Below, piece by piece: positions 46,085 through 49,394 of a DNA stretch of 64,000 nt. The notes beneath the pieces are model-generated. The model worked only from the letters and a program-made list of their open reading frames with translations, had not been told where the DNA came from and ran no database searches. How positions within the stretch are numbered: position 1 is the stretch's first letter; the number at the start of each line of letters is the position of its first letter. Position numbers and translations under genes: made by a program. Where the stretch lies: contig JAPLDB010000110.1 in assembly GCA_026391975.1 (NCBI GenBank), positions 3,535 through 67,534 of the forward strand, read 5' to 3'. Source of the stretch: Bacteroidota bacterium (lineage in GTDB: Bacteria; Bacteroidota; Bacteroidia; AKYH767-A; 2013-40CM-41-45).

Positions 46085-47122
46085 TTATGGCTTATCACTT
46101 CGGAAACGGAACTGAAAAATAAATACGATCCCCAAAAGCGCCGGCGTAACAAGGTTGATAAGCCACAATGAAACTGATGCATTCAGGATTGCCAGCGAAT
46201 CCGGCGTTACCCTTGAAAGGAAATACGTTGCAATGGCGCCGCGAACACCAATTTCAGTGAGTGCAAAAGTCGGAACAAGTGTCATTACGAAAAATATCAT
46301 GTTGATCAGCAATATGAGGGTCTTGGCCGGCGCTTCAATCCCGAAAATTTTCAACAGAAGAAAAAACTGTAAGCTGAATACCATATAACGCATAAATGCC
46401 AGACCCAGCAATACCATCAACTCCGATTTTTTATATTCAGATAGCACCTCAAGATATTTACTTAGCTTCTTAAGTTTTTCTATTTTTAGTATTGACCTGT
46501 CGAGCAATGGAAGTTCCAGAAACAAAAACAGAATGGCCGCTGAAAACACAATCATCAGAATGCCTGTTACCCAGAGAATATATGCATGTAGTCCGCTAAA
46601 CTTTATCAAAAATGCCACAAGGCAGAGGGAGCCAATAATGATGGTAACAATTAGCTGACTCAGGTTTTCGAGGATGGTAACCAGCGTGCCTTTGATCCTG
46701 TTCGCTGAACGAAGGTGAAAAATGCGTCCGGCATACTCCCCGATCCTGTTGGGTGTAAAAAAACTGACCGTCAGTCCTGAGAATACGGCCGCCAGCGCCC
46801 GCAGAAATGGTATCTCTTCCAGTCTTCGCATCATCATCTTCCACTTCAACGCTTCAAGAGACCAGTTCACAAGCATAAGCGAAACCACCAAAAGTATCAT
46901 TGAGCGGCTCCCTTGATTTAGAAAAAGTTCCCTGTACACGGACAGAATTTCAGAAAAATTTTCCTTGCTGATCACCTGCCTGTAGATAAATATAAATGCA
47001 GCAGCAGCTATCAATAACTTGATGCTGCCAAACCAGAAACGGTTGCTCTTATTTGCTTTACTTTGCTCCACAGGGAAGAATGAACAAGGATAATACAAAG
47101 TTTTTCTCGATCTGTATCGCAA
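46085..47122 (-). CDS. Flippase-like/LPG_synthase_TM (UPF0104) family polytopic membrane protein
   Basis: 345 aa, about 8 TM segments. A commonly conserved partner of GT2 enzymes. Confidence 0.5.
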   Translation of the reverse strand: MRYRSRKTLYYPCSFFPVEQSKANKSNRFWFGSIKLLIAAAAFIFIYRQVISKENFSEILSVYRELFLNQGSRSMILLVVSLMLVNWSLEALKWKMMMRRLEEIPFLRALAAVFSGLTVSFFTPNRIGEYAGRIFHLRSANRIKGTLVTILENLSQLIVTIIIGSLCLVAFLIKFSGLHAYILWVTGILMIVFSAAILFLFLELPLLDRSILKIEKLKKLSKYLEVLSEYKKSELMVLLGLAFMRYMVFSLQFFLLLKIFGIEAPAKTLILLINMIFFVMTLVPTFALTEIGVRGAIATYFLSRVTPDSLAILNASVSLWLINLVTPALLGIVFIFQFRFRSDKP

Positions 47123-47158
47123 GACACGATTTTAAACACATAATCAATTCATAAAAAA

Positions 47159-47797
47159 GTGAAAACCCGTGCGGACAAAATAATTCTTGGAATTGATCCC
47201 GGCACAACCATTATGGGCTATGGCCTGATTTCAGTGGCGGGAAGCAAAATGGACGCGGTAGACCTCGGCGTTTTACAGCTCGGCAAGCTGAATGACCATG
47301 CCCTGAAACTGAAAACGATTTTCGAATTCACCCTTTCGCTTATCGATAAATACCATCCCGATGACCTCGCCATCGAAGCACCTTTCTTTGGGAAGAATGT
47401 ACAGAGTATGTTGAAATTAGGAAGGGCTCAGGGGGTTGCAATGGCCGCCGGACTGTTCCGCTCCATTCCGATCTTTGAATATTCGCCTAAAAAGATCAAA
47501 CAATCGATCACAGGAAATGGCAATGCCTCCAAAGAGCAGGTGGCAGCCATGCTTCAAACGCTTCTGACACTAAAGGAACTCCCCCAAAAAATGGACGCTA
47601 CAGATGGTCTTGCAGCGGCAGTTTGTCATTTTTTTCAGCAGAATACATCAGGTGGAAGTAAAAAGAAATTGTCAGGAGGATGGAAATCTTTTCTCTCAGA
47701 AAATCCTGAACGTCAGCTTACTTTGAAGGGCTTGAAAATACTGCAAAGTGATGTATCGTCAAGGTGTCCCTGTTGTATTTTAGCAAAGTTCCATTAG
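47159..47797 (+). CDS. ruvC: Crossover junction endodeoxyribonuclease RuvC. The last ~28 codons are read into an inserted repeat element, giving a non-canonical C-terminus.
   Basis: [16 protein letters not shown].. RNase-H-fold catalytic start, 212 aa. Canonical RuvC C-terminal codons (..GGWKSFLTENPERLLKR*) are found displaced at 48444-48500. Confidence 0.8.
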
Positions 47798-48443
47798 TGT
47801 CCCAAGCTTAAAAACACGAGCTCCAGAGGAGCGACCTGTTTGTAGAATGTGGAGATCTTTCAGTTTTTTCAGCTCCATAGGAGCGGCCTGTAATTTAACA
47901 TCTCGGATTTGAAAAATAATCAACGGCTCATGTTGATTATTTTAAGGACAAATAAATACCAGCAATTTCACTCTCATATTTGGTGCGCGATATAAAGACC
48001 GGGTCTTCCAAATTTATCAATGACATTCATTGGTTAAAAGGGAAATTTAACTTTCAGAATGGATTTGGAGTATTTTCTTATTCAAGAAACCAGATTGATT
48101 CTGTTGTAAGATAAATACTGAATCAGGAAGAACATCATAAAAATCAAATATTCCGGGAGGAATATCATAGTCTCCTTGTGAAATTTGGAATTGAATACGA
48201 TGAAAAATATCTCTTTACCTGTATTGAATAAACAGGCCGCTCCTACGGAGCTCAAACTAATCGAATGGATATTTTCTACAAACAGGCCGCTCCCACGGAG
48301 CTTGAAAAAATTCAATGGGTGTTTTCTAAAATATCGCTTACGACCTCAAATGATTAATAATTGAGCCGGAATTTTTAATTGGGAAATTTTTTAATTGGTT
48401 TGACTATGATACCATATGACCAGCAGGTTTCCCATTGTCGAAA
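47713..48443. mobile_element. About 0.73-kb non-coding palindromic (MITE-like) insertion, flanked by an imperfect 40-bp direct duplication of ruvC 3' sequence
   Basis: Each arm has two tandem ~50-bp units. The left units (47818-47845, 47870-47892) are inverse-complementary to the right units (48231-48253, 48276-48303). There is an internal 11-bp perfect hairpin (aaataatcaac..gttgattattt) at 47916-47944. The flank duplicates are 47674-47713 and 48445-48484 (3 mismatches in 40). Confidence 0.45.
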
Positions 48444-48489
48444 ACAGGAGGATGGAAATCTTTTCTGACAGAAAATCCGGAACGGCTTC

Positions 48490-48888
48490 TTAAAAGGTAA
48501 TATTTTTACGGATAGCCTCAGCTGTAGCTTCCATGTCTTCTTTGGAAAAGGAAAGTTTGGGCATTGCAAAGTTCATGTCACTGACCTTGTTCATAGGAAT
48601 GAGGTGAATATGTGCATGTGGTACTTCAAGCCCGATAACTGCTACGCCTATTCTTTTGCATGGCACTCCTGCTTTTACTGCGATGGAAATCTTTTTTGCA
48701 AACTGCCAGAGATCTGCATGCAGTTCATCTTCAATATCAAAAATATAATCCTTTTCAAGTTTAGGAACTACCAGCGTATGTCCTTTGGCAAGCGGACTGA
48801 CATCGAGAAAAGCAAAGCAGGTTGCGCTCTCTGCGATTTTATAGCAGGGAATTTCTCCTGAAATTATTTTTGAGAAGATCGTTGACAT
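48490..48888 (-). CDS. HIT-family (histidine triad) nucleotide hydrolase
   Basis: HxHxHxx motif HAHIHLIP and ..LDVSPLAKGHTLVVPK.. Confidence 0.8.
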   Translation of the reverse strand: MSTIFSKIISGEIPCYKIAESATCFAFLDVSPLAKGHTLVVPKLEKDYIFDIEDELHADLWQFAKKISIAVKAGVPCKRIGVAVIGLEVPHAHIHLIPMNKVSDMNFAMPKLSFSKEDMEATAEAIRKNITF

Positions 48889-48923
48889 TGTCGGCTAAAA
48901 ATACAAAAGGAACTATTATCCTT

Positions 48924-49394
48924 TTATCTGCTGATAGAAACAATTTCAAATTTCATTTTTCCGGACGGGACTTCAATCACCGCTACTTCACCGACTTTTT
49001 TTCCAAGCAATCCTTTGCCTATTGGTGAGCTAACAGAAATTTTTCCGGATTTAAGGTCAGCCTCGTTTTCGGCAACAAGGGTATAGGTCATCGACTGACC
49101 ATTGCCTTTGTTCTTGATCTTCACTTTTGAAAGGACCATCGCTTTGGAATTATCCATCTTGCTTTCATCCACGAGGCGGGCATTTGCAATAACCGTCTCT
49201 AATTTGGAAATACGGAGCTCAAGCATGCCCTGGGCATCTTTAGCCGCGTCGTATTCCGCATTCTCTGATAAGTCGCCTTTATCGCGGGCCTCGGCAATTT
49301 GTGCGGATATGCGTGGGCGCTCTACGTTCCTTAATTGAGCTAATTCTTCCTGAAGCCTCTTCAGGCCATCTTCAGTGTAATAGGAAACTGACAT
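48924..49394 (-). CDS. greA: Transcription elongation factor GreA
   Basis: N-terminal coiled coil with the acidic tip DLSENAEYDAAKDAQ, and a C-terminal FKBP-like domain. Confidence 0.9.
   Translation of the reverse strand: MSVSYYTEDGLKRLQEELAQLRNVERPRISAQIAEARDKGDLSENAEYDAAKDAQGMLELRISKLETVIANARLVDESKMDNSKAMVLSKVKIKNKGNGQSMTYTLVAENEADLKSGKISVSSPIGKGLLGKKVGEVAVIEVPSGKMKFEIVSISR

Follow-up and report, generated by a model that had tools for sequence, protein, structure and literature searches.

A defective Y1 transposase element in a putative att-like cassette at the 3′ end of ruvC in a Bacteroidota bacterium

Cis-mobilizable elements (CIMEs) and other decayed derivatives of integrative and conjugative elements or integrative and mobilizable elements (ICE/IME) are att-flanked, non-autonomous integrative elements at the 3′ ends of genes. 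The Y1 transposase genes of TnpA_Y1 subclass 1.2 are, to our knowledge, regarded as immobile, domesticated genes without DNA substrates. Here we describe an insert in the 3′ end of ruvC in a 64-kb (64,000-nucleotide) stretch of DNA from a Bacteroidota bacterium (assembly GCA_026391975.1, contig JAPLDB010000110.1), called the window below; all window copy counts refer to these 64 kb. The most probable reading, to which we give roughly 0.6, is of a Y1-bearing element, now defective, that has terminal inverted repeats and sits in a laterally spread att-like cassette. In the survey that described subclass 1.2, its members carry the motif Y---Q--HH, occur in low copy in Bacteroidetes and Cyanobacteria, show no properties of insertion sequences (IS) and generally lack the terminal secondary structures typical of IS200 (Quentin et al. 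2018, BMC Genomics 19:475, PMC6006769). IS200/IS605-type Y1 transposases make no target duplications (PMC6006769). A REPtron is a RAYT/TnpA_REP gene (RAYT, REP-associated tyrosine transposase) flanked by repetitive extragenic palindromic (REP) sequences (Nunvar 2010; Ton-Hoang 2012; Bertels & Rainey 2011, PMC3116915), a unit that is normally not mobile as a whole (PMC6006769).

The current ruvC open reading frame (ORF; 47159–47797, + strand) encodes 212 aa with an intact RuvC domain (Pfam PF02075, E 1e-43). Its conserved 13-residue tail is also intact and is followed by cassette-encoded residues, 27 of them after the conserved ...NPER compared with 4 in relatives. An earlier reading made from the DNA letters without database searches (the sequence-only reading) had proposed an extension of ~28 foreign codons; the extension is real and the count is 27. 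RuvC homologues at 85–97% identity are 189–190 aa long with the C-terminus ...NP.R(L/V)xx(R/K). Much of the ruvC 3′ end occurs twice, as a direct repeat of 48 nt with 88% identity (47673–47720 and 48445–48492) that brackets ~0.73 kb. The 40-bp segment with 3 mismatches reported earlier recurs as described, with its start moved from 47674 to 47673. The right copy runs in frame to ...GGWKSFLTENPERLLKR and a normal, ancestral RuvC stop (48498–48500), giving the 11-bp overlap between the ancestral ruvC end and HIT that had already been pointed out. The convergent HIT-family gene (48490–48888, − strand; Pfam PF01230, E 1.5e-15) is intact at 132 aa, and the same 132-aa gene is found in all relatives.

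Empty alleles were read in L086, L087–L089, L091 and L092. In these sites ruvC and HIT overlap by 11 bp, and L086, L087, L091 and L092 encode a 189-aa RuvC ending in ...NPERLLKR. The insert is an insertion into the 3′ end of ruvC, as had been proposed, and the empty site is present in relatives. The left copy of the ruvC 3′ end (47673–47720, +) is attL-like: its first ~13 nt appear host-derived and the remainder cassette-derived, and it serves as a substitute ruvC end. The right copy (48445–48500, +) is attR-like, being the host's original ruvC 3′ end apart from a first ~13 nt that appear cassette-derived. The left copy retains all conserved residues of the Bacteroidota RuvC tail (G173, G174, W175, K176, F178, L179, N182, P183 and R185), and this is probably why the insertion is tolerated.

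The interior of the insert, earlier described as having no convincing ORF, holds the remains of a transposase gene. The frame from 47956 reads IPAISLSYLVRDIKTGSSKFINDIHWLKGKFNFQNGFGVFSYSRNQIDSVVR, a stop, ILNQEEHHKNQIFREEYHSLLVKFGIEYDEKYLFTCIE and a second stop, and corresponds to residues ~65–155 of a 155-aa Y1 transposase (47956–48231, +; phmmer E 3.5e-39; tblastn match 47959–48228). All 803 matches in the protein search were IS200/IS605-family proteins of 150–157 aa, the best being P0001 (155 aa, 80% identity, E 3.5e-39). The remnant begins just past the HUH motif (PDHxHL), with the motif and ~62 N-terminal codons gone; relative to the intact element L095, ~240 nt of 5′ leader and these ~62 codons are missing. 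A TAA codon (48112–48114) occupies the position of the near-invariant catalytic Tyr in KYILNQEEHH, and the natural stop is kept at 48229–48231. The Pfam profile PF01797 (Y1_Tnp) is matched at positions 60–121 of 121 only, with 19.3 bits against a cut-off of 23. Between the remnants of the window and of L003, a second filled allele, 6 changes are nonsynonymous and 1 is synonymous, which indicates that the remnant evolves neutrally. By its sequence, the core is the 3′ two-thirds of a dead IS200-like Y1 transposase gene, homologous to the intact genes and nonfunctional.

This remnant lies within an element that has ends of its own. Homology between the insert and L095 extends past the hairpin units described below and starts exactly at CTGTTTTCGACAC, and L095 is unrelated upstream of the tip. 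The residual left arm (47722–47817, +) is ~80% identical to the left arm of the intact L095 element. The right arm (48305–48447, +) terminates in the inverted-repeat tip TGTCGAAAACAG (48436–48447), which matches exactly, in reverse complement, the left tip of L003, L090 and L095. The terminal inverted repeat comprises the 12-nt tip and ~210-nt imperfect inverted arms, and alignment of the left arm with the inverted right arm scored 86, versus −9.8 ± 10.9 for shuffled sequences. Element length is 764 nt in L003 and ~1 kb in the intact form. These features point to an element with terminal inverted repeats that is now non-autonomous. The description of the insert as a palindrome resembling a miniature inverted-repeat transposable element (MITE) holds for its palindromic, non-autonomous character, but the element is not non-coding; it is an internally deleted, transposase-bearing one. 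In the left arm, the open frame at 47722–47797 encodes a 24-residue peptide similar to LKGLKILHPDTYLWCPCCVLARF in L095 (65–238). As the L095 frame is only a 57-aa ORF, the left arm is probably conserved non-coding sequence.

Filled alleles were available from the window, from L090 plus L001 and from L003. L090 and L001 are Logan contigs (SRR20698640) from the window's strain, with flanks 100% identical over 3568 and 4140 nt, and L003 belongs to a distinct host lineage. In the 913-nt host alignment of ruvC plus HIT, the window is 95.7% identical to the empty allele L091 and 93.0% to the empty allele L087, L003 is 98.7% identical to the empty allele L092, and the two filled alleles, window and L003, are 89.8% identical to each other. 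On the host tree, then, the two filled alleles do not group as sisters. Their inserts differ at 17/723 sites (2.4%; 97.6% identical), compared with 948/7707 sites (12.3%) in 7.7 kb of flanking sequence (binomial p = 2e-22). Given its neutral evolution, the insert is several times younger than the divergence of its hosts. The best reading of these comparisons is that the cassette crossed recently between two species-level host lineages ~12% apart in DNA.

The two repeats of L003 are hybrids of host and cassette sequence. The empty allele L092 supplies the markers of the L003 lineage in the ruvC end, TCTGGTGGATGGAAGTCTTTCC. In the left copy of L003, host-type TCTGGTGGATGGAAG (L092-type T, T, G) is followed by cassette-type TCTTTTCTCTCAGAAAATCCTGAACGTCAG...; in the right copy, cassette-type ...CGAAAACAGGAGGATGGAA (A, A at positions 2 and 5) is followed, from position 14, by host-type GTCTTTCCTGACAGAG.... 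Both exchanges therefore map to GGATGGAA(N)TCTTT, like a single reciprocal (Campbell-type) event. A single site separates the window's right copy from the empty allele L091. Because the right copies so closely match the hosts' own functional sequence, the insertion appears recent in both hosts. The distal segment of the left copy is alike in two hosts with differing junctions, which argues that it was imported and not copied from the target. The block that moved reaches ~108 nt beyond the left tip and ~10 nt beyond the right tip. Two other routes were considered and rejected: the moved block includes sequence outside the tips, which does not fit tip-to-tip transposition between the lineages, and an undecayed right copy does not fit a local duplication that decayed in situ.

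Directly 3′ of the left repeat, L003 and L090 both retain 110 nt that are missing from the window; the deletion junction (47721/47722) is specific to this assembly. This segment contains the end of a 196-aa RuvC (...ERQLTRTNLKNIY and a stop), a relic of the HIT 3′ end and the left inverted-repeat tip, CTGTTTTCGACA. On the minus strand the relic reads QEMEATTEVIRKNIN and a stop, versus KEDMEATAEAIRKNITF and a stop in HIT. In L003 and L090 the repeat extends through this HIT-3′-like relic, for a total of ~105 nt of ruvC/HIT junction with a 25-nt indel and ~80% identity, and the two alleles show 2 differences across the 110 nt. Along with the left tip, the deletion took out the original stop of the substitute ruvC end, and it thereby fused ruvC to 27 cassette codons and extended RuvC to 212 aa. 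The 212-aa and 196-aa RuvCs in databases are fusion products, and the window product is identical to NCBI MCX6275285.1 (P0241). For annotation, the ancestral 189-aa RuvC end still lies 0.8 kb downstream. The deletion starts just after ...CTTAC, and no hairpins or microhomology favouring Y1-type cleavage were found there. The window and L090/L001 are 100% identical over 7.7 kb of flanks, yet differ by the 110 nt (L090 5564–5673) and by one single-nucleotide polymorphism (SNP; 47806 G/T), either as a within-population polymorphism or as an assembly difference.

Between the two ruvC copies lie nested inverted repeats, as the sequence-only reading had recognized. They are built from a 21-nt unit, AGCTCCATAGGAGCGGCCTGT (at most 2 mismatches), which occurs four times, at 47819 and 47871 on the + strand and at 48232 and 48282 on the − strand, with tandem spacings of 52 and 50 nt. 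The rest of the 64 kb contains no further copy, and 100 shuffled sequences yielded none. A unit comprises a stem of 5 bp with a loop of 3 nt, followed by the tail xxxCTGT. The left outer hairpin unit (47818–47848, +) consists of GCTCC-AGA-GGAGC and the tail GACCTGTTTGTAG, and the same unit is found at 80 related loci; a terminator-like site (47832–47820, −) coincides with it. The left inner unit (47870–47893, +), GCTCC-ATA-GGAGC followed by GGCCTGT, abuts the gene start in intact loci. The right inner unit (48232–48256, −) repeats the left inner unit in inverse orientation and begins 1 nt past the gene's stop, and the right outer unit (48274–48304, −) has the tail CCTGTTTGTAG on the minus strand. 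A further hairpin (47913–47943, +; −9.7 kcal/mol, z = −6.6) is native to the upstream region of the subfamily. L095 has kept it, and L096 has another hairpin in its place; this perfect hairpin had been noted before, with a stem of 11 bp that we now measure as 12–13 bp.

The same layout surrounds intact genes. In L002, two units on each side are arranged in the same inverted two-plus-two pattern, with the left inner unit 5 nt before the ATG and the right inner unit 3 nt after the stop. The family sample consisted of the best 80 of 532 Y1 loci, from 79 species-representative genomes that include Chryseobacterium, Flavobacterium, Cytophagales, Chitinophagales, Ignavibacteria and Chlorobi; among these best 80 of 532 loci, 78/79 genomes have one listed locus each. 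The two-plus-two inverted arrangement is present at ~75/80 loci. Across the 80 loci, 267 units lie within 300 nt of the genes and 40 in the remaining 517 kb, mostly within 1 kb, compared with 1 in shuffled loci. The units are the gene family's own flanking hairpins, concentrated at the gene and not dispersed. Covariation was measured on 93 distinct units picked by their tail (CTGTTNNTAG) alone and not by pairing. In this sample the stem is paired in 97.6% of cells, and double-change cells number 96, compared with 35.5 ± 7.8 after shuffling (0/500) and at most 8 with a slid partner. Such strong stem covariation indicates that the hairpin is a conserved structure.

Several loci depart from this pattern. 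On the 3′ side of the intact gene P0003, L096 carries a tandem array of at least 4 units with ~48-nt spacing, plus inverted copies (690–1000 and 1150–1230). This array is a local expansion of units in one lineage, and similar arrays lie 5′ of the gene in L051 and L074. In L018 (Belliella marina), among few such loci, units including a doublet are found 1.6–3.3 kb from the Y1 gene (483–560 and 2214), which hints that dispersal is possible in some genomes. Both Logan contigs of the window's strain end inside units: L090 (5798) in the left outer unit and L001 (4656) in the right inner unit, corresponding to window positions ~47846 and 48233. Short-read graph assembly breaks at the inverted units, so public assemblies probably contain too few filled alleles as intact contigs.

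Intact relatives of the remnant match NF033573 (IS200/IS605) at 58.6 and 66.1 bits, above the cut-off of 55, and contain PF01797. The nearest solved structure is ISDra2 TnpA (2xm3, E 1.9e-4), and the family motif is Y---Q--HH (KYILNQEEHH). Membership of the RAYT family (class 2) was rejected, as scores against NF047646 (REP_Tyr_transpos) were 32.7 and 35.1 bits, below the cut-off of 80, and the Y---NP motif is absent. By motif and properties (size, taxa, low copy, synteny), the best match for the family is TnpA_Y1 subclass 1.2, and by profile it is closer to IS200 than to RAYT. It resembles that subclass in its Y---Q--HH motif, its length of 153–155 aa, its distribution in Bacteroidota and relatives, its low copy number and its lack of IS-like behaviour. 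It departs from the subclass as described in that nearly all members are flanked by covarying inverted hairpin pairs, and in that the sub-lineage of the window, L003 and L095 adds inverted-repeat tips and occupies different genomic contexts. At 44/80 loci the gene has the same upstream neighbour, a fadB-like gene, which indicates vertical, syntenic inheritance in Flavobacteriales. This gene (670+ aa) lies ~70–160 nt upstream of the Y1 gene in Chryseobacterium, Flavobacterium, Epilithonimonas and Bergeyella (L007, L011, L016, L017, L022–L024 and others), and a thiolase gene comes next at seven loci from Flavobacterium and its relatives, among them L028 (Epilithonimonas). The Y1 gene there looks like part of an apparent fatty-acid oxidation operon conserved across genera.

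Set against described systems, the locus shares features with several. As in a REPtron, a single Y1 gene, usually single-copy and syntenic, is bracketed by inverted short palindromic units. Here, however, the units gather at the gene, whereas REPs are dispersed in high copy, and the hairpin has only 5 bp and a 3-nt loop, with a conserved GTAG 3′ of the hairpin. We would call the locus REPtron-like in architecture and, to judge from its profile scores, not RAYT by sequence. IS200/IS605 elements (IS608, ISDra2) have a transposase of the same family, and the junction observed here is formally compatible with their mode of insertion, which takes place beside a short fixed sequence and makes no true target duplication. 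Their end hairpins lie on one strand and they have no terminal inverted repeats, unlike the mirror-image ends of this element; IS200/IS605 element architecture was set aside, as the units are reverse-complementary and the 12-nt tip and ~210-nt arms are present. Assignment to the MITEs was likewise dropped despite the terminal inverted repeats, because a truncated transposase gene fills the interior and the element measures 764 nt in its full form. Decayed att-flanked elements of the CIME type also resemble the locus, with hybrid host/element repeats, a position at the 3′ end of a housekeeping gene, a replacement end supplied by the insert, empty sites and no recombinase gene inside. The SNP pattern shows hybrid attL- and attR-like repeats, and relatives carry the attB-like empty site. 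The locus differs from CIMEs in having no trace of an integrase, conjugation or phage gene, with one Y1 element making up the whole interior, and in the att-like homology, which is unusually long (~105 nt) and diverged.

Searches for further copies and for a source returned little. The window holds one copy of the insert. Among contigs of species-representative genomes the remnant had no close relative, and as the best match reached only 73% aa identity, the source species is evidently absent from the GTDB representatives. An insert-specific 22-mer gave only two unrelated chance matches in metagenomes, insert-specific 23–25-mers gave zero matches in two scans of viral contigs, and plasmid (blastn) and phage (tblastn) searches yielded one distant IS200 match each and nothing else. 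Rfam on 47000–49200 returned only a 5.8S rRNA match (48883–49026, −; E 0.67), which spans the greA/HIT boundary, scores 14.7 bits versus a gathering score of 42 and was judged to be chance. A different insert occupies the same junction in L084 (3071–4688; also in L085; RuvC P0127, 83% aa identity): 1.6 kb of unrelated sequence between ruvC and HIT, with a 257-aa ORF that has no Pfam match and without a flanking duplication. Insertions seem to recur where ruvC and HIT converge.

How the insert came to lie in two host lineages can be explained in other ways. Ordinary homologous recombination (introgression) would require one old insertion in one lineage and import of a fragment via flanking homology, with exchange points that adjoin the insert by chance or donor markers erased by mismatch repair. 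This is the main rival account: it explains 97.6% insert versus 87.7% flank identity without a special enzyme, and the host-type marker at position 14 in both L003 copies is easily obtained via heteroduplex repair. We nonetheless consider it unlikely. Both exchange points fall within ~14 nt, where donor and recipient share identity blocks of only 8 and 5 nt, although better-conserved ruvC and HIT sequence was available farther out; and with the right copy undecayed in both lineages, the insertion is not old in either sampled host. It is very improbable that the insertion is ancient, that selection has kept it (for instance as a spacer between convergent ruvC and HIT, or as a terminator there) and that recombination between the repeats has removed it time and again. 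Such recombination would regenerate exactly the empty-site sequence of L092, and the hairpins could terminate transcription, the terminator-like site at 47832–47820 (−) being a case in point. Yet the 6:1 ratio of nonsynonymous to synonymous changes marks the pseudogene as neutral, so the 2.4% divergence dates the split of the copies and does not reflect constraint, and the proximal markers of the L003 right copy are of the other lineage's type.

The sequence-only reading favoured a MITE with a long target-site duplication, possibly from an old insertion. In the corresponding account a transposase inserted the MITE and the duplication has since diverged; we find this improbable, even though the direct repeats abut an element with terminal inverted repeats and the element is non-autonomous. 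The repeat is ~105 nt long with a 25-nt indel. Its right copy is undecayed host sequence, one site away from the local host allele L091, and its left distal part, imported with the insert, is ~20% diverged despite recent insertion in both hosts and is the same in two hosts whose own junctions differ. The insert also contains a transposase pseudogene, the 64-kb window has no other copy of it, and Y1 transposases of the IS200/IS605 type make no target duplications (PMC6006769). Of that reading, the side remark about an element capturing flanking sequence agrees best with the data. Least probable of all, in our judgement, is an assembly artefact, in which metagenome assembly produced a chimeric contig or collapsed a repeat. 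Both L090 and L001 do break at hairpin units, and the window and L090 differ by the 110-nt indel despite identical flanks. However, the filled structure was assembled independently in the NCBI metagenome-assembled genome (P0241), in L003 and, as halves, in L090 and L001; L003 carries 17 SNPs of its own; and its junction mixes host and cassette bases within <31 nt, leaving no shared 31-mer for a strain switch.

We therefore return to the laterally spread cassette, for which the following series of events is proposed. The cassette, ~0.88 kb in length (0.77 kb in the window), would enclose the element, with its own diverged ruvC-3′/HIT-3′ junction on the left side and ~13 nt of ruvC sequence on the right. 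A single reciprocal exchange within GGATGGAA(N)TCTTT may have brought it into the ruvC 3′ end. This would make the left repeat host|cassette, giving RuvC a substitute tail with the conserved 13 residues, and the right repeat cassette|host, the displaced original end still overlapping HIT. The enzyme may have been a recombinase, or an intact Y1 homologue, supplied in trans; by an alternative route, host recombination could have acted on a circle that arose by recombination of the left repeat with the right one. In such a circle, or in another excised form, ...TGTCGAAAACAGGAGGATGGAA would be joined to (A/G)TCTTTTCTCTCAGAAAATCC. The 110-nt deletion in the window would be a later event that removed the left tip and the substitute stop.

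Several points weigh against this proposal. There is no recombinase gene within the 0.77–0.88-kb cassette, and we saw neither a circular junction nor the whole cassette at another insertion site. Filled host lineages number two, and only L003 allows the exchange interval to be mapped. Repeat position 14 is host-type in both L003 copies, so a single exchange point is insufficient without heteroduplex repair or a variant of the incoming cassette. The 110-nt difference could be an assembly error in L090 or in the window assembly. Data on the dispersal of units and on an intact Y1 copy in this genome span 64 kb only, and the proposal does not account for the cassette's first acquisition of ruvC/HIT-like sequence.

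A more general proposal, which we regard as doubtful and offer tentatively, is that subclass 1.2 Y1 genes act on a specific substrate, namely covarying 5-bp hairpins that carry the tail CTGTTTGTAG and are set out as an inverted two-plus-two array, and that at least one sub-lineage is a mobile element with terminal inverted repeats. Such an element would integrate site-specifically at the ruvC 3′ end via a decoy ruvC/HIT junction and could be moved between species after its own transposase had died. Movement after the death of its own transposase, if true, would imply mobilization in trans. For a widespread and uncharacterised Bacteroidota clade of HUH/Y1 proteins, the locus offers a candidate DNA substrate and a candidate natural mobility event. 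If the main reading is right, a dead transposon can still spread between species inside an att-like cassette that repairs the gene it interrupts, and such a structure can pass for a long "target duplication" and mislead annotation.

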